From positions 1 to 64,000 of the IMG/VR virus record IMGVR_UViG_3300047548_000908: a DNA stretch of 64,000 nt; one strand, written 5' to 3'. The notes under the pieces are model-generated. The model was not told the DNA's origin. It searched no databases and saw only the letters and a list, made by a program, of their open reading frames with translations. Below are positions 537-15,880 of this stretch, in pieces (position 1 is the stretch's first letter; every line of letters starts with the position of its first letter). Both the position numbers and the translations under genes were made by a program. This DNA comes from an uncultured virus (IMG/VR IMGVR_UViG_3300047548_000908). Taxonomy: Duplodnaviria; Heunggongvirae; Uroviricota; Caudoviricetes.

Positions 537-825
537 TTGACATCAAACCTGCTCGGGGCTATACTACTCAAAATGCAGCTACGACAAATCAAGTCTAGGT
601 AAAAGTTTTTCCGAAATTTAAACAAAGGCTTGACATCTGTAAATAAGTAATGCATAATACGAAAATCAACTTCTGATCAATTTGCCCAAAATTGAAAAAT
701 AATTGAAAAAGAGGTTGACGAAGGAATAAATAAGTTATATACTGATAACTTCTGTAGCAAATTTTGTTCGAAGGAATAAATAAGTTATCAGAAGGCTTGA
801 CAGAAATGTTGAGCAGTGTTAGAAT
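537..825 (+). promoter_or_regulatory. Four tandem sigma70-like promoters upstream of the tRNA array
   Basis: TTGACA-17-TATACT (537-565), TTGACA-17-CATAAT (630-658), TTGACG-17-TATACT (715-743), TTGACA-17-TAGAAT (797-825); TAAATA motifs embedded. Confidence 0.8.
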
Positions 826-867
826 AGCAAAACTGAGAAATTTGAACGAAGGGATTTAACGAAGAAA

Positions 868-999
868 ATGTTTACGAAGTCAGGCAAGTATTATAATTGC
901 TGCTCCAAGCAGGTGTCAAATATGTCACCTCTCTGGTTTGCGATTAATGCACATGCCGATCGTGAACCTAGTAAAAGGGTCTTAGGAGATCGAATGTAA
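868..999 (+). CDS. Putative attenuator leader peptide (43 aa, contains all 20 amino acids)
   Basis: MFTKSGKYYNCCSKQVSNMSPLWFAINAHADREPSKRVLGDRM*; lies between the promoters and a terminator and overlaps the antiterminator arm. Confidence 0.7.
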   Translation: MFTKSGKYYNCCSKQVSNMSPLWFAINAHADREPSKRVLGDRM

Positions 1000-1022
1000 C
1001 TAAAAATTACGTTCACACACTC

Positions 1023-1062
1023 AAAAGACCCTGGAACTAAAAATCCCAGGGTTTTTGTTTTT
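1023..1062 (+). terminator. Intrinsic terminator (attenuator)
   Basis: AAAAGACCCTGG-loop-CCAGGGTTTTT followed by GTTTTT; 5' arm AAGACCCT is complementary to AGGGTCTT at 976-983. Confidence 0.8.
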
Positions 1063-1479
1063 CTACTTGCAAAGGAGTGAAAAATAGAGTATACTGAACA
1101 AGTCAAAGTTAGACGATTTGAAGATTGTTTTCTGACGCAGGAGCAACGGCAACGTTTGCTTCGTGCGAAAGTAGAACGCTACTTGAAATTAGTCAAACTA
1201 ATTAAGGGCGAGAGGACACCTTAAGTGTCTGTTGAATCGCAAAGTGTGTACAGGGAACGCGGTCCTGCAAGGCACTTAAAACATCTTGCTACTAACGAGG
1301 GCGGAGACAGGGATGATAAGTTCGTGGCGATAACACGAATGCGTAAAAACTGTCTTGTAGTAAAGCACATTACCACTGAGCCGAAAGCTAGAAAGATAAT
1401 TTCACTAGGTTAAAACGGGAGACTCAGAAAGGATAGTGTGTTTTACTACACGCACTGGAAACAGTGCGTTAATGAATAA

Positions 1480-1574: not shown

Positions 1575-1649
1575 GGGCCTGTAGTGATAATGGGAGCACA
1601 GGGGCTTTGCAAGCCTTTAGTGGGAGTTCGATCCTCCCCAGGTCCACCA
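1575..1649 (+). tRNA. tRNA-Ala(TGC)
   Basis: Cloverleaf, loop TTTGCAA, G3:U70 pair, CCA. Confidence 0.9.
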
Positions 1650-1656
1650 AAACAAT

Positions 1657-1732
1657 GTCGGTATGGCAGAGCGTCTTATGCATCGGATTGCAAACCCGAT
1701 TTAGGTAGGTTAAACTCCTACTGCCGACTCCA
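1657..1732 (+). tRNA. tRNA-Cys(GCA)
   Basis: Cloverleaf, loop TTGCAAA, U discriminator, CCA. Confidence 0.85.
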
Positions 1733-1740
1733 AATGAATT

Positions 1741-2250
1741 ATGAATGATTTTCTAAAACTTCAACTTCCAATTAATGAAAGGTTTCTTTCATCTAAGTTA
1801 AGTAAAGGTGCATTCAAGTATAACTTGGGAGATTTTTTGTATTATAATCTCTTGCAGCCTTACAGAATTTTTGATGCCAAGTTCTTCTCTATCATGCGAC
1901 CTGATTCATTGTCTTATGTTGAGATACTAGGAAAAGAAACGGCTGCTCATCTAGACGTTAACGTCAATGTTAACTTGAACGTTTATGTTAACGGCAATGG
2001 CGGAGTAACTGAATTCTATACGTCAAGTGTAGAGTCAGAAAATAATTGGTTTGATTTAAAAAATCTAACTAAATGCAATGAATTTGTAGCAAATGAAAAT
2101 GACATTTACCTACTGAATGCACAGGAAATCCATCGAGTGAGTTCTATGGGTAATAGTCGAAGAGAAATAATTCAAGCTTGTTGGCACAATAAATCATTTC
2201 AAGAAGTGAAATTGTTGTTCCAACAAACATATGGTCTTATCTCGGTGTAG
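1741..2250 (+). CDS. Hypothetical protein, cupin/2OG-Fe(II) oxygenase-like
   Basis: HxD (HLD) ... distal H (EIHRV) ... R spacing; resembles 5075-5611. Confidence 0.45.
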   Translation: MNDFLKLQLPINERFLSSKLSKGAFKYNLGDFLYYNLLQPYRIFDAKFFSIMRPDSLSYVEILGKETAAHLDVNVNVNLNVYVNGNGGVTEFYTSSVESENNWFDLKNLTKCNEFVANENDIYLLNAQEIHRVSSMGNSRREIIQACWHNKSFQEVKLLFQQTYGLISV

Positions 2251-2319
2251 CTTAGTCCGGCTTAAAGCGCCTGCTTTGGGAGCAGGAGATCGTGAGTTCG
2301 AATCCCACCTCCGAGACCA
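2241..2319 (+). tRNA. tRNA-Pro(TGG)
   Basis: Cloverleaf, loop TTTGGGA, TTCGAAT, CCA. Confidence 0.9.
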
Positions 2320-2327
2320 ATATTAAT

Positions 2328-2402
2328 GCAGCATTCGTCTATCGGTTAGGACACGACCCTTTCACGGTCGGAAGAGGGGTTCGATTCCCCTATGCTGTAC
2401 CA
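2328..2402 (+). tRNA. tRNA-Glu(TTC)
   Basis: Cloverleaf, loop CTTTCAC, CCA. Confidence 0.9.
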
Positions 2403-2408
2403 AACTTC

Positions 2409-2496
2409 GGGTGATCGACTACGTTGGAGTGTAGTGGCGGGCTGTAACCCCGTTGCCCTCAGGGCTTAGTAGGTTCGACTCCTACATCACCCACCA
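2409..2496 (+). tRNA. tRNA-Tyr(GTA)
   Basis: Cloverleaf with long variable arm, loop CTGTAAC, CCA. Confidence 0.9.
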
Positions 2497-2503
2497 AAAA
2501 TAT

Positions 2504-2578
2504 GCTTGGTTCGTCTATCGGTTAGGACGCTAGACTTTCAATCTGGAAAGACGGGTTCAACTCCCGTACCGAGTACCA
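2504..2578 (+). tRNA. tRNA-Glu(TTC)
   Basis: Cloverleaf, loop CTTTCAA, CCA. Confidence 0.9.
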
Positions 2579-2587
2579 AATAATCAT

Positions 2588-2665
2588 CTGGGTATATTGT
2601 CAACCTGGTAGACGGCCGGGCTTGGAACTCGGAGGCTGCAGGTTCAAATCCTGCTACCCAGACCA
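2588..2665 (+). tRNA. tRNA-Pro(TGG)
   Basis: Cloverleaf, loop CTTGGAA, CCA. Confidence 0.9.
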
Positions 2666-2674
2666 ATTATTATT

Positions 2675-2751
2675 GCCTCGTTGGATCAGTTGGAGTGATC
2701 GTCTGCCTGTCACGCAGAAGGCCACGGGTTCAAGTCCCGTACGAGGCGCCA
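2675..2751 (+). tRNA. tRNA-Asp(GTC)
   Basis: Cloverleaf, loop CTGTCAC, G discriminator, CCA. Confidence 0.92.
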
Positions 2752-2758
2752 AATTTGA

Positions 2759-2835
2759 TGCGGAGTGGAGCAGTGGTTAGCTCGTCGGTCTCATAAGCCG
2801 AAGGTCGGGGGTTCGAATCCCTCCTCTCGCTACCA
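2759..2835 (+). tRNA. tRNA-Met(CAT), initiator-like
   Basis: Loop CTCATAA, unpaired 1:72, fMet-like D-arm, CCA. Confidence 0.8.
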
Positions 2836-2841
2836 GTTTTA

Positions 2842-2956
2842 GCCGCTGTCGTCTAATGGTAGGACGCTTAAAAAGCGAATCTGTCAAGATTACGTTCAGC
2901 AATTACAATTCCATGTCAAGGAAGATATCTAGGTTCGATTCCTAGCAGCGGCGCCA
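2842..2956 (+). tRNA. tRNA-Asp(GTC)-like RNA with a ~40-nt insertion between the D-arm and anticodon arm
   Basis: Acceptor GCCGCTG/CAGCGGC-GCCA, D-arm, TTCC-ATGTCAA-GGAA, T-arm CTAGG-TTCGATT-CCTAG; insert AATCT-GTCA-AGATT-ACGTT-CAGCAA. Confidence 0.65.
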
Positions 2957-2962
2957 GTTTAT

Positions 2963-3045
2963 GTGTGTTTGGTCAAAATGTTAGGGCATCACGACGCAGG
3001 GCTAACAACCTTGAAGTGCGGGTTCGAATCCCGTAACACACACCA
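2963..3045 (+). tRNA. Atypical tRNA-Val(AAC)-like
   Basis: Acceptor GTGTGTT/AACACAC-ACCA, loop CTAACAA, canonical T-arm, irregular D region. Confidence 0.55.
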
Positions 3046-3050
3046 GTTTT

Positions 3051-3112
3051 AGGATGCTTTCAGCAAACTTTATACATTAGACTTCTAATCTAAACCGTAA
3101 AAAGGCATCCTG
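3051..3112 (+). ncRNA. Stem-CAGCAA small RNA displaying an Arg(TCT) anticodon-like hairpin
   Basis: AGGATGC/GCATCCT closing stem, CAGCAAACTT, TTAGA-CTTCTAA-TCTAA. Confidence 0.6.
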
Positions 3113-3122
3113 TTTTGTTTAT

Positions 3123-3197
3123 TCCGGAGTAGCACAGCGGTAGTGCAGTTGACTGTTAATCAATTGGTCGTAGGTTCGATCCCTGCCTCCGGAGCCA
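3123..3197 (+). tRNA. tRNA-Asn(GTT)
   Basis: Cloverleaf, loop CTGTTAA, CCA. Confidence 0.92.
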
Positions 3198-3203
3198 AAT
3201 TGT

Positions 3204-3278
3204 TGGGGTATGGTGTAATGGTAGTCACAACGGATTTTGATTCCGTTAGTCTAGGTTCGATTCCTAGTACCCCTGCCA
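3204..3278 (+). tRNA. tRNA-Gln(TTG)
   Basis: Cloverleaf, loop TTTTGAT, CCA. Confidence 0.9.
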
Positions 3279-3283
3279 AAGTT

Positions 3284-3349
3284 TCACTGTGTACTTGGTA
3301 GTACGAGATTGGCGCGCAACTCGACTAGGTTCGATCCCTAGACAGTGAT
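3284..3349 (+). ncRNA. Degenerate tRNA-like element
   Basis: TCACTGT/ACAGTGA stem, D-like hairpin, T-arm CTAGG-TTCGATC-CCTAG; no proper anticodon loop or CCA. Confidence 0.5.
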
Positions 3350-3358
3350 TTAAGTTAT

Positions 3359-3434
3359 TACGGTGTAGTTCAATTGGCAGAACCCTGGTCTCCAAAACCA
3401 GATGTTGGGGGTTCAAGTCCCTCCACCGTAGCCA
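3359..3434 (+). tRNA. tRNA-Trp(CCA)
   Basis: Cloverleaf, loop CTCCAAA, CCA. Confidence 0.9.
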
Positions 3435-3548
3435 TATTAAAGCACACTAAGGCGCAGGCCGCGCTGATATGGGTGGTGCATAGCTTTGCCCTTAGAGCAA
3501 AGTCGGTAGGTTCAAGTCCTACAAGTGTGCTTCAATATGGTAATCGAT

Positions 3549-3624
3549 GGTGGCTATAGCTCAACGGTAGAGCCTCGGATTGTGATTCCGATAGATGTCG
3601 GTTCAAATCCGACTAGTCACCCCA
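3549..3624 (+). tRNA. tRNA-His(GTG)
   Basis: G-1, loop TTGTGAT, C discriminator, CCA. Confidence 0.9.
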
Positions 3625-3633
3625 AGAATTTTT

Positions 3634-3717
3634 GCCCCGGTGGTGGAATGGTAGACACGCTGGTCTTAGAAACCAGTGCCGAGAGGCGTGAGGGTTCGAA
3701 TCCCTCCTGGGGCACCA
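3634..3717 (+). tRNA. tRNA-Leu(TAG)
   Basis: Long variable arm, loop CTTAGAA, CCA. Confidence 0.92.
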
Positions 3718-3724
3718 AGAATAT

Positions 3725-3799
3725 GCGGGTATAGCACAGTGGTAGTGCATCTGCTTGCCAAGCAGAAGGTCGTCGGTTCGAACCCGACTACCCGCTCCA
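3725..3799 (+). tRNA. tRNA-Gly(GCC)
   Basis: Cloverleaf, loop TTGCCAA, TCCA end. Confidence 0.92.
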
Positions 3800-3897
3800 A
3801 AACGAAAGTTGCCTAGACGCAACAGCAACGGCTGTGAACTACTCATGATTTATTGAGTGTACAAGCAGCGCCGGAAAGCGTAACCGGTGCCCTTTTT

Positions 3898-3955
3898 AGG
3901 ATGCATTCAGCAAACTTAATTCTACTTCTTATTGGAAAAAGAAAAGCGCATCCTG
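3898..3955 (+). ncRNA. Stem-CAGCAA small RNA (second copy)
   Basis: AGGATGC/GCATCCT stem, CAGCAAACTTAATT, weak hairpin with a TTGGAA loop. Confidence 0.6.
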
Positions 3956-3965
3956 TTTTATAATT

Positions 3966-4039
3966 GGCCCTTTAGTTAAAAAGTATAACACCGTGCTGAT
4001 AACGCGGAGTCGGAGGAGCGTTACCTCCCGGGGCTACCA
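3966..4039 (+). tRNA. tRNA-Ile(GAT), non-canonical T-loop
   Basis: Loop CTGATAA, T-loop AGCGTTA, CCA. Confidence 0.8.
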
Positions 4040-4058
4040 AATTTTTAAGGAGATTGAC

Positions 4059-4079
4059 ATGAAACGAGGTAAGATGTAG
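4059..4079 (+). CDS. Putative micro leader peptide MKRGKM
   Basis: Strong SD AAGGAG at 4047-4052; followed by alternative RNA structures that overlap the tRNA-Lys 5' end. Confidence 0.45.
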   Translation: MKRGKM

Positions 4080-4142
4080 TGTCGCTCTAGATCCCATCGT
4101 AGGTCTAGAGTTGGCACGGTAAATCAACAATACGATCTATGA

Positions 4143-4217
4143 TGGGGTATAACTCAATGGTAGAGTAACCGGCTTTTAACCGGTAAGTTGGGGGTTCAAG
4201 TCCCCCTGCCCCAACCA
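4143..4217 (+). tRNA. tRNA-Lys(TTT)
   Basis: Cloverleaf, loop CTTTTAA, CCA. Confidence 0.9.
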
Positions 4218-4305
4218 TATTAAAGTGCATTATCCTGGCAAACACTGATCAGCAGGACCGAAAGGATATGAAAATAGTGTACTTCAATATGGTCAAGTAC
4301 GTTAA

Positions 4306-4382
4306 AGTGACGTAGTATTAGTGGAAATACGCAGTCCTCATAAGGCTGAAAGAAGCGAGTTCGAACCTCGCCGTCACTACCA
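4306..4382 (+). tRNA. tRNA-Met/Ile2(CAT)
   Basis: Cloverleaf, loop CTCATAA, CCA. Confidence 0.85.
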
Positions 4383-4395
4383 TCATATATACAAC

Positions 4396-5007
4396 ATGAA
4401 ACGATTTAACAGCTTAGTTCATTACATTTGGGTAGGAGAGAATTCTACCCCAGATAGTTTTTACGGTAACTATAGAAACACTATTGCAATGAATCCTTCT
4501 TATGGATTTATTCTATGGAAAGACTCAGATATTTTAGAGAACTTTCCGCATATCAAAGAATTGTACTTGAAAAGCACCTTGTTTCATAAGTTGCAATTAG
4601 CAAGGTATTCGGTGTTAGACAAATTTGGCGGTATCTATACTGATTTTGATATTAGGTGGAAAGTAGATTTCGATCATTTGTATTCCTTGTTTGATGAAGT
4701 AGATATGATATTTCCTAAAAGAAGAGGATTATACTTCTACAATCGAGGAATGAAAACCACGATGATTGATGACTTTGTGATTATTGCCAAAAAACATAAA
4801 ACTTCTGACTTCTTAAAGTTTTGCCAGTCACCTTGTGTTCCTAAACTCGATGAGACCTTTCCTTATGGAACACCCTCATTAACAGAATGGTTAATGACTA
4901 AGGAAAGTGTTGGGTATATAACACCTGAACAAATCTATGATGAGGAAACGTGTGAACTAGCTGTTCATGAAAATAAAAAAACTTGGCAAAAACTTAATGC
5001 CCCTTAA
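4396..5007 (+). CDS. Glycosyltransferase, DXD sugar-binding (GT32-like)
   Basis: VHYIWVG and ARYSVLDKFGGIYTDFD motifs; start moved to the ATG downstream of the tRNA. Confidence 0.75.
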   Translation: MKRFNSLVHYIWVGENSTPDSFYGNYRNTIAMNPSYGFILWKDSDILENFPHIKELYLKSTLFHKLQLARYSVLDKFGGIYTDFDIRWKVDFDHLYSLFDEVDMIFPKRRGLYFYNRGMKTTMIDDFVIIAKKHKTSDFLKFCQSPCVPKLDETFPYGTPSLTEWLMTKESVGYITPEQIYDEETCELAVHENKKTWQKLNAP

Positions 5008-5074
5008 GCTAATCTAGTGAAAGCATATGCCTGAAGAGCATGGGAGTCTGGAGCGTAACCAGAAGGGGGCACCA
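4999..5074 (+). tRNA. tRNA-Phe(GAA), non-canonical T-loop
   Basis: Loop CTGAAGA, T-loop AGCGTAA, CCA. Confidence 0.8.
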
Positions 5075-5611
5075 TTAAACAATCAGATCAGAAAAAATAG
5101 AGATAGCATCGCGCATAGATAAAAATTGATTATGCTGGTTTTGTAAAACTAGGCTGATACAATATCGTTCTGCTTTTGAATTTATAACTGCATGCGGGAC
5201 TCCTACTTGAACTAGGTAAGCTCCTCGTAGTTGTTCTTTGTGTACAAGATTGACTTCATCTCGTTTGTAGTACAAGTAGTTGCTGTTTATAGCCGTTTTA
5301 AATGGAATCTTTACAATAGAAGGATCTTTTGGTGCAAACCAAAACATTGTGCTGTTTTCTCCGCCGTATATCCAGTTGATTTTAACAATGTCTCCCCCTA
5401 GATCATCGGTGTGAATATTGACAATATCAAATGGTTTTCTATAGAAAATTTCTGCCCAGCTTATGGAAATGTTTCTTTCCGATAAAAATGATTGAATTTC
5501 AGGGTTGATTTCTGACTTATCTAATACGGTGTGTTCTTTCTTTATAGAATATAGATCGAAAGTACTAGAGACGGGAGAAAGATCAAGGTTAAGTTTATTG
5601 CAGTAATTCAT
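5075..5611 (-). CDS. Hypothetical protein, cupin/2OG-Fe(II) oxygenase-like
   Basis: IHTD ... VPHAV ... RYCISL spacing. Confidence 0.5.
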   Translation of the reverse strand: MNYCNKLNLDLSPVSSTFDLYSIKKEHTVLDKSEINPEIQSFLSERNISISWAEIFYRKPFDIVNIHTDDLGGDIVKINWIYGGENSTMFWFAPKDPSIVKIPFKTAINSNYLYYKRDEVNLVHKEQLRGAYLVQVGVPHAVINSKAERYCISLVLQNQHNQFLSMRDAISIFSDLIV

Positions 5612-5630
5612 GACAATATTTATTGGAGTT

Positions 5631-5704
5631 GCCCCTGTGGTTTAATAGTAAAATACATCTTTGGTAAAGATGAGTAGGAGGAGCGTAACCTTCCTGGGGC
5701 ACCA
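5631..5704 (+). tRNA. tRNA-Thr(GGT), non-canonical T-loop
   Basis: Loop TTGGTAA, T-loop AGCGTAA, CCA. Confidence 0.8.
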
Positions 5705-5711
5705 AACATAA

Positions 5712-5801
5712 GGAGAAGTGGCCGAGTGGTTTATGGCTCTAGTCTTGAAAACTAGCGTAGGGGAAACTCTACCGTGAGTTCGAATCTCACCTTCTCCGCC
5801 A
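5712..5801 (+). tRNA. tRNA-Ser(TGA)
   Basis: Long variable arm, loop CTTGAAA, GCCA. Confidence 0.92.
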
Positions 5802-5808
5802 AAAATAA

Positions 5809-5884
5809 AGGACCTTAGCTCAGTTGGTAGAGCGTCTGCCCTACACGCAGAATGTCGTCAGTTCGAACCTGGCAGGTCCTACCA
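5809..5884 (+). tRNA. tRNA-Val(TAC)
   Basis: Cloverleaf, loop CCTACAC (C33), CCA. Confidence 0.85.
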
Positions 5885-5890
5885 AACTCT

Positions 5891-5967
5891 ACTTCCTTAG
5901 TTCAGTGGTCAAGAACGCTTGCATGACACGCAAGAGGTCAGAAGTTCGATTCTTCTAGGAAGTACCA
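5891..5967 (+). tRNA. tRNA-Val(GAC)
   Basis: Cloverleaf, loop ATGACAC, CCA. Confidence 0.88.
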
Positions 5968-5968
5968 C

Positions 5969-5997
5969 TTGACATACATATAAGAGATATGTATAAT
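5969..5997 (+). promoter_or_regulatory. Consensus sigma70 promoter driving the ncRNA cluster
   Basis: TTGACA-17-TATAAT. Confidence 0.85.
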
Positions 5998-6003
5998 TAT
6001 TGA

Positions 6004-7250
6004 CATCATATCAAAGCATATGTCCGTAAGAATCGGGGGTTTGAAATCGGAAACTTCGTGACCCGAGTATGCTTTGATATGGTGTGAAGCTGATCTGTAT
6101 GTCAGCGGTAGTCGATGAAGCGGAAACTATACACGATACTTGATAAGGTGCAATGACACCGGCGGGTCGTTGAACATAAGCAGAGGCTATGACTAGACCA
6201 CGTACTGCGAGAAATCCGGATGCATACGGAGAGTAACAAGACTCGTGGACACCAGACTAATAACAAGAGGTATCTATGAACAAAACAATAACGCTCGCCG
6301 AGTTTGAAAAGCAGTTTAAAGAGTATTACGCTAATTTGGATAAGCCTACAAGCATAGATGGATTCATGGGTAACTGGGCATGGTATCTTCATGCAAGGAA
6401 TGAGTTCAGGAAGAAGTTAGAAGAACAAGGCGTTACCATATTAAAGTAGATTGAGTGCGAAAAAGAATTCCGTTGAACAAACGGCCACTTAACAGTCTAC
6501 TTCAATATGGTTGCAACCAGGAATAAAGCCTGTCTTTGACAAGTCACTCGAGGCTCTACCCCCTCCGTTAAAAGTGGTCAGGAGAGTGACACTATATTAA
6601 AACACATTGGTTGGTATCGGAGTGGGGCAACAGCCATAAACTTCCTGCCCCTTTGAAGGGAAGTACCAGTGTGTTTCAATATGGTGAAAGCCAGTAAGAG
6701 CAGCGGTCTCTTCTCTAAGTTGCGTCCAGTATGAGCAGCACGGTAAGCTAGCTAAATCCGTGGGCAGGCAATAGTATCAAAAAGAAACTTAGATGACAGC
6801 CAGGAAAGACTGGCACCATATTGAAACATATTCTTTGAGGTCTTGGTCGTTACCAGCGTATGCGAAAACGGCGACAGAATATGTTTCAATATGGTAAATG
6901 CGTAGGCTGATACGCAGTAGCTGGTTATGCGGATTGCAGGCCCAGACCATCGTTTAGGGTAGCGTCAGGAAACAGGACGTAGCAGTGCAATCAAGTTGGA
7001 GATCAGCACCAACTACCATATTGAAGCACACTTAACACTATGAGGACTCAAGCTGGTGGTGCAGTTGTAGTCGCTGTGTGTGCGCCTAGTGTGTTTCAAT
7101 ATGGTAACAAAACCGAGGAAGGAGCCGCCAAAGAGCGACGATGCGTACCACCCTGACGTTACGGTGGCATACTATATTAGGTGGGTTCATGCATCTGCCG
7201 TCTGGGACATCCCTCGACCCAGTGTCAAGTACGAAAACCTTGACACCATT
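6004..7250 (+). ncRNA. Cluster of unannotated structured RNAs, five of them closed by a conserved ACCATATT.../...AATATGGT helix
   Basis: Helix-closed units 6004-6084, 6435-6511, 6590-6686, 6815-6895, 7014-7106, separated by hairpin-rich segments that mostly end in ACCA. Confidence 0.6.
6276..6449 (+). CDS. Small hypothetical protein (57 aa)
   Basis: SD GAGG, MNKTITLAEFEKQFKEYY...; below the ORF-track cutoff. Confidence 0.55.
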   Translation: MNKTITLAEFEKQFKEYYANLDKPTSIDGFMGNWAWYLHARNEFRKKLEEQGVTILK

Positions 7251-7275
7251 CCAACAACTCAGCTTTAGGAATAGA

Positions 7276-7461
7276 ATGAAAACTCGCAACCTTGGTCGTA
7301 AAACTAAGCAAGTCAAATTTAGTAATCAGAAGAGGTATCCAGTATTCAATAGTAACTTTACTCCTCAGAAGCAAACAGTTAAGTTTAACTTTAGTATTCC
7401 AGTTTGGAAGATTGTTCTCGTAATTATTTTCTTTATTTGCTGGGCAATGCTAGTCCTTTAA
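7276..7461 (+). CDS. Small basic protein with C-terminal TM helix
   Basis: SD AGGA, MKTRNLGRK...IVLVIIFFICWAMLVL. Confidence 0.55.
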   Translation: MKTRNLGRKTKQVKFSNQKRYPVFNSNFTPQKQTVKFNFSIPVWKIVLVIIFFICWAMLVL

Positions 7462-7463
7462 TT

Positions 7464-7539
7464 GCGCCTCTAGCTTAATGGATAGAGTCCTGGTCTTCGA
7501 AACCAGTTTGTGGGGGTTCGACTCCCTCGAGGCGCGCCA
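7464..7539 (+). tRNA. tRNA-Arg(TCG)
   Basis: Cloverleaf, loop CTTCGAA, CCA. Confidence 0.88.
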
Positions 7540-8656: not shown

Positions 8657-10603
8657 ATGTCAATATCCAATTTATTCAAAAGTAATTTTGAAAAGACCGC
8701 ATACAAGTCTATGACCATAGATGAGTATCTTGACCTATGCAAAAGTGACAAGATGGCTTACGCCACAGCCGCAGAACGAATGATTGCAGCGATTGGTGAG
8801 CCAGAGCTAGTGGACACTAGCAAAGATTCTCGTCTAAGCAGAATCTTCACTAATCGTACAGTAAGAATGTACCCAGCATTCAAAGAGTTCTATGGTATGG
8901 AAGATGCAATCGAACGTATTGTAGGGTACTTCAGACATGCAGCACAAGGACTAGAAGAACGTAAACAAATTCTATACCTACTAGGACCAGTTGGTGGCGG
9001 TAAGTCATCACTTGCTGAACGCCTTAAGGAGTTGATGGAGCTCAACCCTATCTATGCACTAGCAACTGAAACAGGTGAGATTAGTCCTGTATTCGAAAGT
9101 CCACTAGGGCTGTTCTCTTCAGTACCACAGTTCAGAGAACATTTGTTTGAACAATATGGAATAGAAGGACGCTATCTCAATAGCATCATGAGTCCGTGGG
9201 CTATGAAGAGGCTAAAAGAATTCAATGGTGACATCACTAAGTTCCGAGTAGTTAAGTTAATGCCTAGTAAACTAGAGCAAATTGCAGTCATGAAGACTGA
9301 GCCTGGTGATGAAAACAACCAAGACATCAGTACCCTAGTTGGTAAGGTTGATATTCGTAAACTAGAACAATACAGCCAAAATGATACTGATGCCTATAGC
9401 TATAGCGGTGGATTGAACAGAGCTAATCAAGGCCTACTTGAATTCGTAGAGATGTTTAAGGCTCCTATCAAAGTGCTACATCCTCTACTTACAGCCACAC
9501 AGGAGGGAAACTATGTCGGTACAGAAGCAATCTCTGCTATACCGTTTCAAGGAATTGTTCTTGCCCACTCTAACGAAAGTGAATGGCAAACCTTTAGAAA
9601 CAACAAAAACAACGAAGCGTTTCTTGACAGGATATGCGTTGTCAAGGTACCGTATTGCTTGCGTGTTGACGAAGAAGTTAAGATTTACGAAAAAATGATC
9701 AAGAGTTCGGGCCTAGGTGCAGCACCTTGTGCTCCTCAGACAGTCGAAATGCTAGCACAGTTTAGTGTATTGACTAGACTTCGTGAACATGAAAATAGCA
9801 CCCTCTTTAGTAAGATGCGAGTCTACAATGGAGAAAACATTCGTGACAGTGATCCTAAAGCAAAGTCTATTCAGGAATATCACGATGTTGCAGGTGTAGA
9901 TGAGGGTATGGATGGCATTTCAACTCGATTTGCTTACAAGATTCTAAGTCAGACCTTTAACTTCACTCCAGAAGAAATCGCAGCAGACCCCGTACATCTA
10001 ATGTTTGTACTTGAGAACGCAATTAAGCGTGAACAGTTTGGATCAGATCGTGAACAAAAGTATCTTGATTTTATTAAGAGTGAGTTGTCTACTAGATATG
10101 CAGAGTTTCTAGGTAATTCTATTCAACGTGCATATCTAGAATCATATAGTGACTATGGGCAAAACTTGTTTGATCGCTATGTAGATTTTGCTGATGCATG
10201 GATTCAGAACATTGAATTCAAAGATCCAGATACTGGACTAATGATGGATAGGGCTTTGCTGAACTCAGAGCTTGAGAAGATCGAGAAGCCTGCAGGGATT
10301 TCTAATCCAAAAGATTTTAGAAACGAAGTAGTCAACTTCTGCCTAAGAGCAAGAGCTAAACCCGAGAACGGTGGAAAGAATCCTGCTTGGACTAGCTACT
10401 CAGTTCTTCGTGACGTTATTGAAAAGAGAATGTTTAGTCAAGTAGAAGACCTTCTACCAGTCATCAGTTTTGATAGCAAGAAGGATAAAGAACTTGAGAA
10501 GAAGCACAACGACTTTGTGACCAGAATGATTGGTCTAGGATACACCGAAAGACAAGTAAGACGTTTGTGTGACTGGTATCAGAGAGTTCGTAAGAGTTCT
10601 TAA
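8657..10603 (+). CDS. yeaG: PrkA/YeaG family AAA+ serine protein kinase
   Basis: GPVGGGKS Walker A, EPGDENNQDIS, EFVEMFKAPIKVLHPLLTATQE. Confidence 0.95.
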   Translation: MSISNLFKSNFEKTAYKSMTIDEYLDLCKSDKMAYATAAERMIAAIGEPELVDTSKDSRLSRIFTNRTVRMYPAFKEFYGMEDAIERIVGYFRHAAQGLEERKQILYLLGPVGGGKSSLAERLKELMELNPIYALATETGEISPVFESPLGLFSSVPQFREHLFEQYGIEGRYLNSIMSPWAMKRLKEFNGDITKFRVVKLMPSKLEQIAVMKTEPGDENNQDISTLVGKVDIRKLEQYSQNDTDAYSYSGGLNRANQGLLEFVEMFKAPIKVLHPLLTATQEGNYVGTEAISAIPFQGIVLAHSNESEWQTFRNNKNNEAFLDRICVVKVPYCLRVDEEVKIYEKMIKSSGLGAAPCAPQTVEMLAQFSVLTRLREHENSTLFSKMRVYNGENIRDSDPKAKSIQEYHDVAGVDEGMDGISTRFAYKILSQTFNFTPEEIAADPVHLMFVLENAIKREQFGSDREQKYLDFIKSELSTRYAEFLGNSIQRAYLESYSDYGQNLFDRYVDFADAWIQNIEFKDPDTGLMMDRALLNSELEKIEKPAGISNPKDFRNEVVNFCLRARAKPENGGKNPAWTSYSVLRDVIEKRMFSQVEDLLPVISFDSKKDKELEKKHNDFVTRMIGLGYTERQVRRLCDWYQRVRKSS

Positions 10604-10614
10604 AGGAAAGCTAG

Positions 10615-11871
10615 ATGGCTAATATCATTGACCGAAGACTGAATCCAAAAGATAAGACGATTAAGAATCGTCAAAAGTTTATCAAGCGAAGTAAGGCACA
10701 GATAAAGGAAGCGGTAAAAGAATCAATAGACAATGGAAACATTGCTGATATCGAAAACGGAAAGGTAAAAGTTAAGGTCAAAGGTATTGGCGAACCATCG
10801 TTCGGTATTAACTCAAAGACAGGTGATAAGAAGTATGTGCTACCCGGCAACAAAGAACACGTTGTCGGCGACAGGCAAAAAAAGCCTGAGGATGAAGAAG
10901 GTGGCGGAGGATCAAAGGGTGGACTAGGTGAAGGAGAAGATGACTTTGAGTTTGTACTTAATCCAGATGAGTACCTTGACTTCATCTTCGAAGACTTAGA
11001 GTTACCTGATCTAGTTAAAAAACAAATGAAAGACATTACAAAGGTAAAGCCTAAGAGAGCGGGCTTTACTAATGTAGGCAATCCAAGTCAGTTAGATGTT
11101 GTACGAAGTCTTAAGAATAGCTTAGGAAGAAGAATAGGACTCAAGCGTCCTAAGAATGAAGAAATTCTTGAAATTGAAGAACAGCTTAAGACATGCAACG
11201 AGTATAAAGCAAAGGAACTCTTGCTACGACTTGAAGAGCTAAAGAGAAAGCAACGTGCTATTCCCTGGCTAGATCCATTTGATGTAAGATACAGAAACTT
11301 CACTCCTACCCCGCAGCCAATTACCAAAGCAGTCATGATTTGTATCATGGACGTATCTGGTAGTATGGGACAGAGAGAAAAAGATTTAGCCAAGCGTTTC
11401 TTCTTTTTCTTGCACATGTTCCTAAGAAGAAAGTATGAAAAGGTAGATGTAATCTTTATTCGACACCATGAGTCTGCTAAAGAAGTAGATGAAGAAGATT
11501 TCTTCCATAGTAGAGAAAGCGGCGGAACTGTTGTTAGTTCTGGACTAAACTTAGCTTTGGAAATTATCAAAGAACGATATAACGTCGATGACTGGAATAT
11601 TTTTGTCAGTCAGGCATCTGATGGGGACAACTTTTCCAATGACGGCGAAGACACAGTGATTGCACTTGAAAAGTTATTGCCCTTAGTTCAGTATTTTGCC
11701 TACGTCGAAATAGAGAACTTGTATTACGCAAACAGCCTAAACACTGAACTATGGGATACATATGATCCATTACGAGAAAAATACTCACATTTGGCCATGC
11801 GAACAGTCACTGAAGTGAAAGACATTTGGCTAGTGTTCAGAGAGTTGTTTGCTAAACAAGAAGCGAGGTAA
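10615..11871 (+). CDS. yeaH: YeaH/YhbH (DUF444) vWA protein
   Basis: IIDRRLN, MDVSGSM, ESGGTVVSS, QASDGDN. Confidence 0.93.
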   Translation: MANIIDRRLNPKDKTIKNRQKFIKRSKAQIKEAVKESIDNGNIADIENGKVKVKVKGIGEPSFGINSKTGDKKYVLPGNKEHVVGDRQKKPEDEEGGGGSKGGLGEGEDDFEFVLNPDEYLDFIFEDLELPDLVKKQMKDITKVKPKRAGFTNVGNPSQLDVVRSLKNSLGRRIGLKRPKNEEILEIEEQLKTCNEYKAKELLLRLEELKRKQRAIPWLDPFDVRYRNFTPTPQPITKAVMICIMDVSGSMGQREKDLAKRFFFFLHMFLRRKYEKVDVIFIRHHESAKEVDEEDFFHSRESGGTVVSSGLNLALEIIKERYNVDDWNIFVSQASDGDNFSNDGEDTVIALEKLLPLVQYFAYVEIENLYYANSLNTELWDTYDPLREKYSHLAMRTVTEVKDIWLVFRELFAKQEAR

Positions 11872-11873
11872 GC

Positions 11874-12584
11874 ATGAAGATAAGTGAGATATTACCTCTT
11901 TTTGAAAACGCATCATCTAGCATAGGTGCAATATTTCTAAATGATAACGCGGTAGTAGTAGGACAGGCGCACGGGAAACCATTACAATTATCTCCTGAAA
12001 CTCTTCAACGTGTTCAAATGATAGCCAAAAAATACGGTGCTTGGTATGAAGGCAACGGTACAGACGCTCCATTAACTAAAGGTCAAATAGACAATTATAA
12101 AGGAAGCTGGGATGATCAGGTAGCTAATGACATAGACCCAAATGATTACAAGTGGTTATATGTTTTGTTTTCTAACGTCGATGAAAATAATAGAGTTCAA
12201 CGAGTTGGAGTCGACCCAAATGATTCAATATTCAATCGTTTATTAAAGACTGCTAAGGACAATTCGTTCCAGAACATAGGATTTACTTCCAATGCCCTTA
12301 CAGAATTTTTGTCTAATGCTAGTGAGGGGAAATATGACTTCGTTGCAATGAGCAAACAGTCGGCTACAGAAGAAAACCTAGCTAACTTTTTAAAGTCAGG
12401 TGAGCAGTTAATGTGGCCTAAGAATTGGGGATCTTATCCTTATAAGGCAGGAAGAATAGCCAAAGCTGCTACAGTTGATACTAGAGATCAATATCTCGCT
12501 ACTAGAAAAACTGGTGTATATGTTACTGGTAGTGGGCACCTAATCGCGGTTAGTAAAATCAGCGGTAAACCAATAATACCCTAA
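11874..12584 (+). CDS. Hypothetical protein inserted in the yeaH-ycgB operon
   Basis: 236-aa ORF with MKISEI N-terminus. Confidence 0.7.
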   Translation: MKISEILPLFENASSSIGAIFLNDNAVVVGQAHGKPLQLSPETLQRVQMIAKKYGAWYEGNGTDAPLTKGQIDNYKGSWDDQVANDIDPNDYKWLYVLFSNVDENNRVQRVGVDPNDSIFNRLLKTAKDNSFQNIGFTSNALTEFLSNASEGKYDFVAMSKQSATEENLANFLKSGEQLMWPKNWGSYPYKAGRIAKAATVDTRDQYLATRKTGVYVTGSGHLIAVSKISGKPIIP

Positions 12585-12595
12585 AAGGAATTGTT

Positions 12596-14044
12596 ATGTC
12601 AAAGCTACTATGGGAAGGTAATGATTGGACGTTTGAGCGTCTAAAAATAGCAGATGAAGCTATTGCAGAAATCGCGTTCGATGAATTGAAACTAAACACG
12701 TATCCCAATCAGATTGAAATCATAGGATCGGATCAAATGTTAGAAGCGTATGCTTCACATGGTCTTCCACTTATGTACAATCATTGGAGCTTTGGTAAAC
12801 ACTTCATACAACAGCAATACAGTTATCGTAAAGGATATCAAGGACTAGCGTATGAAATCGTAATTAACTCTTCTCCGTGTATCAGTTATCTGATGGAAGA
12901 AAATTCGATGACGATGCAGGCATTAGTAATTGCTCACGCTGCATATGGGCATAATCATTTCTTTAAGAACAATTACCTGTTCAAGCAATGGACTGACGCA
13001 GAAGGCATCGTTGACTACATGAACTTTGCCAAGAACTACATTGCAAAGTGCGAAGAGAAATATGGGTACGAAGCTGTAGAAAATACATTGGATGCTTGCC
13101 ATGCTATCATGGATTATGGCATCGACAAGTACAAAAGACCCTCAAAGTTAAGCAAAGAAAAAGAAGAGGAACGTCAAAAACAAAGAGAAGAGTTAGTGCA
13201 GCAACAGGCTAACGAACTTTGGAGTACACTCCCTAAAAAGAAAACACAAGAGTCTAGGGTATCAAAGCAGTTTCCTGAAGAACCGCAAGAAAACATTATG
13301 TACTTCATAGAGAAACATAGTCCTATTCTTGAGTCTTGGCAACGTGAAATCGTTCGTATTGTTCGTAAGATTAGTCAATACTTCTACCCACAACGTCAGA
13401 CTAAAGTGATGAACGAGGGTTGGGCTAGCTTCACTCACTATTACATCATGAATAGACTTTGGGAAAAAGGTCTTATTAGTGATGGTAGTTATCTAGAATT
13501 TATACACAGCCACTCAGGTGTACTGACTCAGTTGCCATATGATCACAAGTATTACAATGGATATAATCCATATGCACTTGGGTTCGATATGTTTAGTGAC
13601 ATTCGCAGAATTTGTGAGTTTCCTACTGCTGAAGACGAAGAATACTTCCCTCACCTAGTTGGAAAGAACTGGCTTGATGAATGTTTGTATGCAGTAGAAA
13701 ACTATCGTGACGAAAGTTTTATTCAACAGTTCCTCAGTCCAACCATAATGCGTAAATGGAAACTGTTTGAAATTACTAACAATGAAGATGATGAGTACGT
13801 CGAAGTAACTGGCATTCAAGATAACAGGTACTATGACAGAATCAGACAGACATTGAGTAGCCAGTATAGCCTATCAGCTTATCAACCAAACATTCAGGTG
13901 TTTGATGCAGACCTTAAAGGTAGCAGAGAGCTAAGACTGAAATATACTCCAGTAAACAATGCTAAGTTACATAAGAGCAAAGCAACAGTACTGGAGTATA
14001 TTAAGATGCTGTGGGGGCACTCAGTAGTAATCATTGAAAAATAA
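12596..14044 (+). CDS. ycgB: SpoVR/YcgB family protein
   Basis: YPNQIEII, HWSFGK, LAYEIVINS, QTKVMNEGWASF. Confidence 0.93.
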   Translation: MSKLLWEGNDWTFERLKIADEAIAEIAFDELKLNTYPNQIEIIGSDQMLEAYASHGLPLMYNHWSFGKHFIQQQYSYRKGYQGLAYEIVINSSPCISYLMEENSMTMQALVIAHAAYGHNHFFKNNYLFKQWTDAEGIVDYMNFAKNYIAKCEEKYGYEAVENTLDACHAIMDYGIDKYKRPSKLSKEKEEERQKQREELVQQQANELWSTLPKKKTQESRVSKQFPEEPQENIMYFIEKHSPILESWQREIVRIVRKISQYFYPQRQTKVMNEGWASFTHYYIMNRLWEKGLISDGSYLEFIHSHSGVLTQLPYDHKYYNGYNPYALGFDMFSDIRRICEFPTAEDEEYFPHLVGKNWLDECLYAVENYRDESFIQQFLSPTIMRKWKLFEITNNEDDEYVEVTGIQDNRYYDRIRQTLSSQYSLSAYQPNIQVFDADLKGSRELRLKYTPVNNAKLHKSKATVLEYIKMLWGHSVVIIEK

Positions 14045-15790: not shown

Positions 15791-15880
15791 AGAGAGTTGC
15801 CGGAGAGGCTTATCGGCACTGATTGGAAATCAGTTGGCTGCGAAAGCGGCACGAGGGTTCGAATCCCTCACTCTCTGCCA
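15791..15880 (+). tRNA. tRNA-Ser(GGA)
   Basis: Long variable arm, loop TTGGAAA, GCCA. Confidence 0.9.

Follow-up and report, generated by a model that had tools for sequence, protein, structure and literature searches.

The transcription attenuators of enterobacterial amino-acid operons (ilvGMEDA, ilvBN, thr, trp, his, leu and pheA) combine a leader ORF, a terminator and an overlapping antiterminator. Completion of the leader by the ribosome favors termination, while a ribosome stalled at the regulatory codons favors read-through. These regulatory codons name the product in demand, and they stand for one to three amino acids, arranged in runs. T-box riboswitches bind uncharged tRNA directly, sense one species, need no ORF and control mainly aminoacyl-tRNA synthetase genes.

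We analyzed a window of 64,000 nt (positions 1 to 64,000 of the 137-kb record IMGVR_UViG_3300047548_000908 of an uncultured virus, a giant phage) that carries a comparable arrangement ahead of a tRNA gene array. As in the enterobacterial attenuators, a short ORF lies between promoter and genes, followed by a predicted terminator and an antiterminator overlapping its 5′ arm. Unlike them, the system is phage-borne, it would regulate tRNA genes and a structured RNA instead of biosynthetic enzymes, it covers up to 20 amino acids, each once or a few times rather than in runs, its mRNA is predicted to be leaderless in most relatives, and it has yielded no clear anti-antiterminator (1:2) element. The correspondence between regulatory codons and regulated product holds at the level of amino acids, but not at the level of codons and anticodons. 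The proposed switch shares with the T-box a choice between terminator and antiterminator that answers tRNA charging and acts on genes of the translation apparatus; its defining feature, however, is a conserved open frame.

Models of the T-box riboswitch and of amino-acid leaders (RF00230, RF00506 and RF00514) gave no match at gathering score, either here or in five relatives. The Rfam Thr_leader and His_leader models aligned mainly to the terminator, with scores so far under gathering (17.8 bits against 55 and 17.3 against 49, respectively) that the locus is no member of these families. We interpret the locus as a ribosome-mediated (leader-peptide) transcription attenuator placed before phage tRNA genes, and we assign this reading a probability of roughly 0.7. 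What computation established is its parts and their conservation, covariation of the switch, a reading frame that has been kept open and a leader whose composition matches the downstream tRNA genes.

Leader ORF, predicted RNA switch and downstream genes in the window

The first-pass annotation of the window described four tandem promoters leading into an ORF that uses all 20 amino acids early, then a terminator whose 5′ arm can pair with the 3′ end of the ORF, and each of these elements was recovered. The sigma-70-like promoters P1 (537-565, 11/12), P2 (630-658, 11/12), P3 (715-743, 10/12) and P4 (797-825, 11/12) all lie on the + strand, in a region that also holds a 20-nt direct repeat (719-738 = 769-788). 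The leader ORF (868-999, + strand) has 43 codons plus a stop and spans −157 to −28 relative to the terminator, the same place as the ORFs of its relatives. Residue 33 completes the set of 20 amino acids. Across all six frames of the window, only 6 of 31,333 stop-free stretches of 33 codons contain all 20, and these six fall into three regions, the leader ORF being one. A second small ORF with all 20 amino acids, at 126228-126350 of the record, has no tRNA nearby and was taken as chance. Many other promoter-plus-small-ORF units occur in the phage record.

The distance from the P4 −10 element to the leader ATG is 42 nt, giving a 36-nt leader that lacks a good ribosome-binding site; its sole Shine-Dalgarno-like motif, GAAGGGA, lies 14 nt 5′ of the ATG. 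The early genes of the phage, by contrast, carry GGAG or AGGA about 7 nt before an ATG that is located about 30-32 nt past the −10 element. Inside the ORF, a 12/12 promoter-like site on the − strand (919→890; TTGACA, 18-nt spacer, TATAAT) points at the leftward gene 500→3 and takes up 30 nt of the frame. It differs from the other 12/12 sites of the record, all 16 of which have a 17-nt spacer. Both this site and the unusual spacing ahead of the ATG speak against an attenuator in the window.

The terminator, earlier placed at 1023-1062, was confirmed as a predicted intrinsic terminator at 1024-1062 (+ strand), where a stem (1028-1034/1046-1052 plus A/U pairs) and an 11-nt loop precede a U-tract at 1052-1062. 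Folded alone, 1024-1056 reaches −15.5 kcal/mol. Its G+C core has just 7 bp, and the hairpin is followed by TTTTTGTTTTT; the short stem and the large loop count against the attenuator reading. The competing antiterminator hairpin (976-1032, + strand) consists of an outer helix joining the 3′ end of the ORF to the terminator 5′ arm (976-983/1025-1032), a middle helix (986-988/1020-1022) and an inner helix (992-999/1007-1014). This hairpin is the minimum free energy (MFE) structure of 960-1062 (−27.8 kcal/mol, z = −2.99, matched by 1 of 200 shuffles), and the fold that contains the terminator is just 0.2 kcal/mol worse. Among the terminator-like sites of the record, 17 of 19 retain their hairpin in the MFE structure. 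Because the predicted default of a ribosome-free transcript is read-through, the terminator would be effective only when the leader is efficiently translated.

The entire RNA from P4 to the terminator (832-1062) is exceptionally structured, with a folding energy of −71.2 kcal/mol (z = −6.16, matched by none of 200 shuffles). After regression on GC content, none of the 1,186 non-overlapping 231-nt windows sampled from the record is as extreme. The + strand of 832-1062 is 10 kcal/mol more stable than the − strand. In this fold, the AUG region (858-869) is unpaired. A long hairpin is predicted within the ORF (870-967) in the window's fold and is a candidate pause or 1:2 element.

The first-pass annotation had proposed that a ribosome that has arrived at the stop covers the antiterminator strand, and constrained folding agrees with this proposal. 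With a ribosome mask at A-site codons 2-32 the model predicts the antiterminator, and with the mask at codons 33-43 it predicts the terminator. A stall within codons 1-33 (868-966, + strand) would therefore leave the antiterminator strand free, and we treat these codons as the putative sensing window, the 32/33 boundary of which hinges on the assumed ribosome footprint.

Immediately behind the terminator lies a weak promoter-like site (1067-1095, + strand; 9/12: TTGCAA, 17-nt spacer, TATACT). Between the attenuator and the first tRNA, a conserved structured RNA of unassigned kind (1241-1470, + strand) has a homologous stretch in the relatives, and 22 of its 28 predicted pairs show compensatory changes. 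Rfam searches of the leader and of this downstream RNA matched no family. Next comes a tRNA-like element (1474-1562, + strand), read by eye, with an 8-bp acceptor-like stem, GTA in an anticodon-like loop and an encoded CCA. It is 77% identical to positions 3120-3204 of three related loci (L018-L020) and was called neither by ARAGORN nor by Rfam.

The tRNA gene array itself (1575-7539, + strand) is broken up by small ORFs and a 12/12 promoter (5969-5997), and an additional tRNA-Ser (15791-15880, + strand) lies beyond it. ARAGORN found 22 tRNAs covering 17 amino acids. The claim that the downstream tRNAs serve all 20 holds if three further genes are counted: Ile(GAT) at 3966-4039 and Phe(GAA) at 4999-5074, both with relaxed ARAGORN and Rfam tRNA matches, and Tyr(GTA) at 2409-2492, with a sub-threshold Rfam match and a cloverleaf read by eye. 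The putative switch precedes the array, as proposed. Strict gating is doubtful in the window: given the promoter-like site at 1067-1095 and the promoter at 5969-5997, the array is probably not wholly dependent on read-through.

A family of related loci

Several searches for relatives returned nothing. There was no blastn match to 400-1700 in a phage collection, no related locus when the flanking proteins 1741-2250 and 3-500 served as anchors, and no match to 1297-1334 or to the exact terminator in a pattern scan of viral contigs. Literature searches listed no paper on leaders of this kind. The 43-aa peptide had no match in a protein collection, a weak test in which the control ORF 1741-2247 matched only itself. 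None of 80 loci anchored on the PrkA gene resembled the window's leader, and their tRNA blocks begin directly after a promoter or gene, without a leader. The exception is the pair L008/L009, where three tRNAs are preceded by a promoter, a 39-aa ORF that uses all 20 amino acids, a terminator and a further ORF and promoter; BLASTP detected no similarity between this 39-aa ORF and the window's peptide, and no further relatives of the pair were found. A promoter-pattern scan recovered mostly unrelated loci, with 8 candidate ORFs in 80 loci, 7 of them family-like.

No RNA run was found to contain the stretch. Contigs from four other runs cover 970-1103 and 1238-1773, but not 836-969, which led us to search for the terminator. 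A terminator-pattern scan gathered 65 metagenome loci and 25 viral loci, and 62 of the 65 metagenome loci belong to the family. The leader ORF, counted as an ATG frame of 33-56 codons with its stop 24-32 nt before the terminator arm, occurs in 61 of the 65. The terminator is 85-94% identical among relatives, a conservation that is partly ascertainment since the family was collected through it. Within the family, 98.7% of the cells of its stem are paired, and three pairs are altered on both sides.

The relatives have a single promoter in place of the window's four. Of 43 unique upstream regions, 39 carry a 10-12/12 promoter whose end lies 0-10 nt ahead of the ATG (7 nt in 21 regions and 10 nt in 14), and the mRNA is therefore predicted to be leaderless. 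Compared to its relatives, the window is atypical in its four promoters, its 36-nt leader without a good ribosome-binding site and its weak promoter after the terminator.

We found that the relatives keep the antiterminator, as the attenuator reading of the window had anticipated. In all 43 unique sequences, at least 6 of the 10 bases of the terminator 5′ arm pair upstream, with the 3′ end of the ORF, before the 3′ arm exists. The stabilization of the antiterminator is −11.6 kcal/mol in the family compared to −2.0 kcal/mol in shuffles, and for 39 of 41 family sequences at most 1 of 60 shuffles stabilizes it as well. Across 19 diverse sequences, including four variant terminators, 85.9% of the cells of the outer helix are paired, while slid controls reach 14-56%. 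Changes on both sides of this helix occur at three pairs (8 cells) in the same 19 sequences, and 0 of 500 shuffles match this result. The two structures are close in energy throughout the family, and the MFE keeps the terminator in just 21 of 43 sequences.

Leader composition and tRNA gene position

The leader peptides drift while their amino-acid richness is retained, which is the pattern that the first-pass annotation had expected in related phages. Summed over 16 peptide clusters, the leaders contain 302 distinct residues compared to a null expectation of 255.2 ± 6.7 (0 of 20,000 draws as high). Eight of the 16 clusters have all 20 amino acids within 40-45 residues, a property shared by only 0.4-0.9% of such windows in the phage's own proteins. 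The description of the leader as pan-amino-acid stands for the window, which is the all-20 case. It does not extend to the relatives, whose leaders are confined to the amino acids that downstream tRNAs serve.

In the metagenome loci, the amino acids missing from the leader overlap the downstream tRNAs 0 times, compared to 15.3 expected, and the upstream tRNAs 9 times, compared to 2.6 expected. Shuffling the pairing of leaders and tRNA genes gives P = 5 × 10−5 with 22 units and P = 0.0096 with 13 clusters. The viral loci, inspected with 8-kb flanks, behave alike: missing amino acids occur among the downstream tRNAs 9 times (29.9 expected) and among the upstream tRNAs 20 times (6.3 expected). 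When the count is restricted to the sensing window, an amino acid that has a downstream tRNA is present in 214 cases and absent in 14, whereas one that has only an upstream tRNA is present in 6 and absent in 33. The Fisher P-value of this partition is 4 × 10−25 and 0 of 20,000 pairing shuffles match it, although these P-values, like those above, overstate independence because the loci are related. The exceptions are thus 9 missing-but-downstream cases in the viral loci and 14 + 6 mismatches in the sensing window. One locus, L282, illustrates the rule, as its four unsensed amino acids (C, D, E and Y) are exactly those of its upstream tRNAs, and the 15 that it does sense are exactly those of its downstream tRNAs.

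Proposed mechanism and alternative readings

The most likely role of the switch is to activate tRNA production in response to stalled ribosomes. Transcripts from P1-P4 would carry the 43-codon ORF, the last codons of which form the 5′ strand of the hairpin that sequesters the terminator 5′ arm. A leading ribosome that advances without hindrance to codons 33-43, or that rests on the stop, would cover this strand, allowing the terminator to fold and to end transcription near 1056-1062. An earlier stall, on a scarce aminoacyl-tRNA, or the absence of a loaded ribosome would let the antiterminator form, and RNA polymerase would continue through the structured RNA to the tRNA array. In this scheme, the ORF would be a test sentence holding the amino acids of the tRNA genes behind the switch, all 20 in the window's phage, and the outcome would be a demand-driven feedback on tRNA supply. 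We infer translation of the ORF, termination at 1024-1062 and stalling-dependent read-through.

A further generalization is one that we favor, if less firmly than the attenuator itself. In large freshwater phages, the leaderless "pangram" mini-ORF would be a programmable, multi-input sensor of decoding capacity, with sensed codons that spell out precisely those amino acids for which tRNA genes lie behind the switch. Those tRNAs and the structured RNA would be transcribed only when a ribosome stalls for one of them, and residues would be gained or lost as tRNA genes move behind or in front of the switch. On this reading, the transcription of tRNA genes would for the first time be seen to be under feedback from a leader-peptide attenuator.

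The attenuator could instead be real and report overall translation or its coupling to transcription (ribosome availability, initiation rate or elongation speed) and not particular tRNAs, with the richness of the leader a by-product. Leaderless starts, which couple initiation tightly to transcription, and the predicted read-through of a ribosome-free transcript would both suit such a sensor. Tandem runs of regulatory codons were not encountered in the leaders, where most amino acids appear 1-3 times and dispersed, so the response to any single tRNA is uncertain. Nor do the leader codons match the tRNA genes at the codon/anticodon level (138 of 305 codons are cognate, 133.3 expected). A sensor of overall translation nevertheless leaves unexplained why amino acids of upstream tRNAs are missing from the leaders while those of downstream tRNAs are present, and why residues are placed ahead of the antiterminator strand, with only 9 of 202 falling outside that region (+12 nt) compared to 22.5 expected. 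We therefore consider it unlikely.

We hold a similarly low opinion of a riboregulator in which a protein, a tRNA or another RNA sets the choice of structure and the ORF is untranslated. The exceptional folding of 832-1062, the weak ribosome-binding site in the window and the lack of the 43-aa peptide from the protein collection would fit an RNA element. Substitutions are distributed over the three codon positions as 31/35/45 (P = 0.25), with no clear third-position excess, and coding is consequently deduced from frame maintenance and composition only. That frame is nonetheless open in all 16 diverged cluster representatives, with 0 in-frame stops compared to 56 and 47 in the other two frames, and in 39 of 43 upstream regions transcription is predicted to start at the ATG. 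Moreover, the composition is far richer than chance and matches the positions of the tRNA genes, and no Rfam family, T-box included, matches the RNA.

An independent small gene among the tRNA genes, its peptide the product and the hairpin a stable 3′ end, would account for the unit's own consensus promoter and terminator, the abundance of promoter-plus-small-ORF units in this phage, the recurrence of a motif around the single Trp in several peptide clusters and the promoter found after the terminator in the window and in 6 relatives (at least 10/12 before the next RNA in 6 of 48 unique downstream stretches), but it is very improbable in view of the near-neutral divergence of the peptide (27 variable codons synonymous-only and 52 amino-acid-changing), the conserved and covarying antiterminator strand inside the ORF, the closeness in energy of terminator and antiterminator, the partition of composition by tRNA gene position and the 42 of 48 downstream stretches without a strong promoter.

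If the leader-peptide attenuator is correct, it bears on the old question of why phages carry tRNA genes and how they are used, for which the explanations current in the literature include codon compensation and escape from host defenses that target tRNA. Phage tRNA supply would prove to be under the control of demand, leader-peptide attenuation would reach beyond amino-acid biosynthesis into the translation machinery, and a single natural attenuator would integrate up to 20 inputs. The family supplies natural variants for direct tests, in the form of leaders that lack 1-5 amino acids, and the conserved RNA behind the switch (1241-1470) poses a further puzzle. For the phage, such a switch could counter the depletion or cleavage of host tRNAs.

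The leader unit in the window

The leader unit lies in a 1-kb gap of the virus record (137,127 bp, completeness 35% by CheckV; bases 1–64000 form the window), with a leftward gene (500 to 3) on one side and the rightward tRNA array (1575–7539) on the other. The first-pass annotation had described four tandem promoters, a leader ORF containing every amino acid, a terminator and a competing antiterminator, and each feature was recovered. There are four promoter-like sites (P1–P4), each matching 10–11 of the 12 TTGACA/TATAAT positions. The ORF at 868–999 has 43 codons and reaches 20 of 20 amino acids by residue 33; only 6 of 31,333 stop-free 33-codon windows, at 3 places in the window, do so.

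By itself, the hairpin of the predicted terminator (1024–1062, including its U-tract) has a folding energy of −15.5 kcal/mol. Once 60 nt of upstream sequence are included, the minimum free energy (MFE) structure is the antiterminator, consisting of 976–983/1025–1032, 986–988/1020–1022 and 992–999/1007–1014 (z = −2.99), and a fold that contains the terminator lies just 0.2 kcal/mol above it. As a comparison, the hairpin is retained in the MFE structure at 17 of 19 terminator-like sites of the record. We simulated the ribosome by masking a 30-nt footprint, one codon after another, and then folding the RNA. In line with the proposed stalling logic, the model predicts the antiterminator when no ribosome is present and when codons 2–32 occupy the A site, and the terminator for codons 33–43; the last new amino acid (Glu, codon 33) is on the edge of this boundary. 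The predicted RNA from P4 to the terminator (832–1062) folds at −71.2 kcal/mol, compared to −46.5 ± 4.0 kcal/mol in shuffles (z = −6.16), and after regression on G+C it remains at −3.34 SD, a value that none of 1,186 windows sampled from the record reaches. Folding of the opposite strand is 10 kcal/mol weaker, and the AUG surroundings (858–869) are unpaired in the predicted fold.

Doubts about an attenuator in the window arise from its poor ribosome-binding site, from promoter-like sites inside the ORF and just behind the terminator, and from a promoter within the array. In the phage's early genes, the ATG is found about 30–32 nt downstream of the −10 element and is preceded at about 7 nt by GGAG or AGGA, whereas the leader has GAAGGGA 14 nt upstream of an ATG located 42 nt downstream of the −10 of P4 (797–825). 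Inside the ORF, a 12/12 site on the minus strand (919 to 890) has an 18-nt spacer, while the spacer is 17 nt in every other 12/12 site of the record; many perfect TTGACA-17-TATAAT promoters precede small genes of the phage. The minus-strand site opposes P1–P4 and is directed at the leftward gene, so its transcription would possibly be convergent with theirs. The site behind the terminator (1067–1095) matches 9/12, and the promoter within the array (5969–5997, after tRNA-Val) matches 12/12. Behind the latter comes a series of long hairpins (within 5969–7280), whose arms carry repeated ATATCAAAGCATA or CCATATTGAAACA-like motifs that enclose variable inserts.

Relatives and conservation of the predicted switch

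Relatives of the leader were found neither in the phage collection, nor via flanking proteins, nor by a peptide search, for which a control protein search returned itself alone. Contigs from four other runs span bin 970–1103 but not the ORF body, and metagenome contigs were therefore searched with the terminator, using a pattern of its two arms and a free loop. Among the 65 loci returned (terminator identity 85–94%, followed by tRNA-like hits), 61 have a 33–56-codon ATG ORF that stops 24–32 nt before the terminator arm, bearing out the expectation of equivalent leaders in relatives; in the window, the ORF spans −157 to −28 relative to the terminator. In L094, promoter and ATG are present but the frame continues through the terminator, and L126, L130 and L132 were rejected for their unrelated contexts. 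Including the window, the leader set contains 62 sequences, 45 unique peptides and 16 clusters at 60% identity.

We found that 39 of 43 unique upstream regions have a 10–12/12 promoter close before the ATG, at a distance of 0 nt in 1, 7 nt in 21, 9 nt in 3 and 10 nt in 14 regions; the exceptions are the window, L097, L102 and L138. Therefore, the transcript would start at or beside the AUG as a leaderless mRNA. Over 16 cluster representatives, the ORF frame contains no stops and the other two frames contain 56 and 47. The peptides themselves drift, with variable sites distributed 31/35/45 by codon position (P = 0.25) and with 27 synonymous-only and 52 amino-acid-changing variable codons. We infer that the leader is translated.

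The switch is conserved across these sequences. When the terminator's 3′ arm is withheld, all 43 unique sequences pair the ORF's 3′ end with at least 6 of 10 terminator arm bases; folded in full, 21/43 prefer the terminator, indicating that the two states are near in energy. The upstream pairing energy is −11.6 kcal/mol, compared to −2.0 kcal/mol in shuffles, and in 39/41 sequences no more than 1 of 60 shuffles equals or betters it. Because the search pattern had fixed the terminator arm, we sought variant arms with a promoter pattern and obtained four further types (L158, L165, L183 and L187/L202), each with a cognate strand at the ORF end (duplexes of −14.3 to −20.2 kcal/mol). In an alignment of 19 diverse sequences, 85.9% of antiterminator cells are paired, compared to 14–56% in controls slid by 1–3 columns, and 3 pairs are altered on both sides (8 cells; 0/500 shuffles). 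The terminator helix is paired in 98.7% of cells and also has 3 pairs altered on both sides.

Correspondence between leader residues and tRNA genes

The leaders are unusually rich in different amino acids. Distinct residues summed over cluster medians total 302, compared to 255.2 ± 6.7 for equally long windows from the phage's own long ORFs (at least 302 in 0/20,000 draws). All 20 occur within 40–45 residues in 8/16 clusters, where the chance per such window is 0.4–0.9%, and the largest cluster keeps all 20 in 13/13 variants.

The first-pass annotation had also placed tRNAs for all 20 amino acids downstream, a set we could complete: 17 from ARAGORN, Ile and Phe from relaxed ARAGORN and Rfam, and Tyr (2409–2492) from manual reading of the sequence. 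Rfam adds two tRNA hits missed by default ARAGORN, at 2842–2956 (45.4 bits) and 2963–3042 (49.4 bits); the former has an insertion of about 40 nt and is called Trp with an intron when introns are allowed. A further tRNA-like element (1474–1562), called by neither ARAGORN nor Rfam, combines an acceptor-like stem of 8 bp with an anticodon-like loop that contains GTA; its variable region is over-long and its CCA is encoded. The element shares 77% identity with 3120–3204 of loci L018–L020, which are anchored on the PrkA gene.

In relatives, the leader unit often lies within the array, with tRNA genes on either side. Across the metagenome loci, taken with 1.5-kb flanks, residues that the leader lacks coincide with downstream tRNA genes 0 times, when 15.3 are expected (0/20,000), and with upstream tRNA genes 9 times, when 2.6 are expected (P = 1.5e-4). 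When leaders and arrays are re-paired at random, P is 5e-5 with 22 units and 0.0096 with a single unit from each cluster (n = 13). As the loci are related, all P values of this comparison with tRNA genes overstate independence, yet several lineages differ in their partition. Within one cluster, Ala and Tyr are missing from the L113 leader and both of their tRNAs are missing downstream, while L147 contains the two residues and the two tRNAs. The viral loci (8-kb flanks) mostly sample the same phages again but with far longer arrays; here the counts are 9 compared to 29.9 expected downstream and 20 compared to 6.3 upstream (each 0 of 20,000), and the pairing shuffle gives P = 5e-5.

The correspondence extends to the sensing window, the part of the ORF where a stalled ribosome would leave the antiterminator strand free. 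Downstream-tRNA amino acids fall beyond it in 9/202 cases, compared to 22.5 from permuted codon order (P = 2e-4), assuming a ribosome reach of +12 nt; this comparison is partly confounded because the sequence of the ORF tail is itself constrained. Within the sensing window of 22 units, residues whose tRNA gene lies downstream are present 214 times and absent 14 times, while those with only an upstream gene are present 6 times and absent 33 times (odds ratio 84, Fisher P = 4e-25); mismatches number 20, compared to 45.8 ± 4.7 under the pairing shuffle (0 of 20,000). L282 is partitioned exactly: the unsensed {C, D, E, Y} are its upstream tRNA set and the sensed residues its 15 downstream ones. 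Leader codons do not match the tRNA anticodons (138/305 cognate, 133.3 expected), which is either a weakness or a consequence of U34 tRNAs reading whole codon boxes.

RNAs behind the predicted switch and the overall reading

Between the terminator and the next RNA gene, 42 of 48 unique stretches have no promoter-like site of at least 10/12, and the other 6 have an extra ORF inserted there. One subfamily has a 16-codon ORF that begins in the terminator U-tract with a strong AAGGAG ribosome-binding site; another has a 52–60-codon ORF and then a promoter just after the terminator (such subfamilies include L092, L105, L112, L115, L120, L121 and others). A conserved structured RNA lies between the terminator and the first tRNA (window 1241–1470; L095:1540–1763; L096:450–623) and would be co-regulated with the tRNAs. 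Its 28 predicted pairs include 22 with compensatory changes, a 17-bp stem encloses a hypervariable insert, the AACG.G and GGGCG blocks are invariant, and it matches no Rfam family. A piece of about 100 nt (1241/1252–1354) occurs in unlike flanks in two other runs, and the hairpins within 5969–7280 look like its long stem.

Farther downstream, genes for a PrkA-type kinase (YeaG-like), a DUF444 protein and a SpoVR-like protein are consecutive at 8657–14044; such genes also occur in some jumbo phages, and the PrkA gene is common to 224 viral contigs. PrkA-anchored relatives have no such leader, except for an analogous unit in L008/L009 that probably belongs to the same class, as a distant member. 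There (L008:10905–11140, minus strand; L009 identical), an ORF of 39 codons, in which all 20 amino acids occur, has its ATG 10 nt downstream of a TTGACG/TACAAT promoter. The terminator differs, and GGGGTTC in this ORF is a possible pairing partner for its 5′ arm; farther on come a second ORF of 53 codons, a promoter and tRNA-Ser/Pro/Thr.

A full-text literature search, limited to the part of the literature it could reach, found no paper describing tRNA genes under the control of a leader peptide. The window is atypical among the relatives: it has four promoters rather than one, its transcript would have a 36-nt 5′ leader where the others start leaderless, its terminator stem is slightly weakened, and a weak promoter-like site comes after the terminator. 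Judged from sequence, the unit is best explained as a ribosome-mediated attenuator, with a leader that spells out the amino acids whose tRNA genes lie behind it; transcription would end at the predicted terminator, and read-through would depend on stalling. The window would then hold its complete 20-amino-acid version, heading a 20-amino-acid array, and we speculate that such an attenuator may act against anticodon nucleases or starvation.
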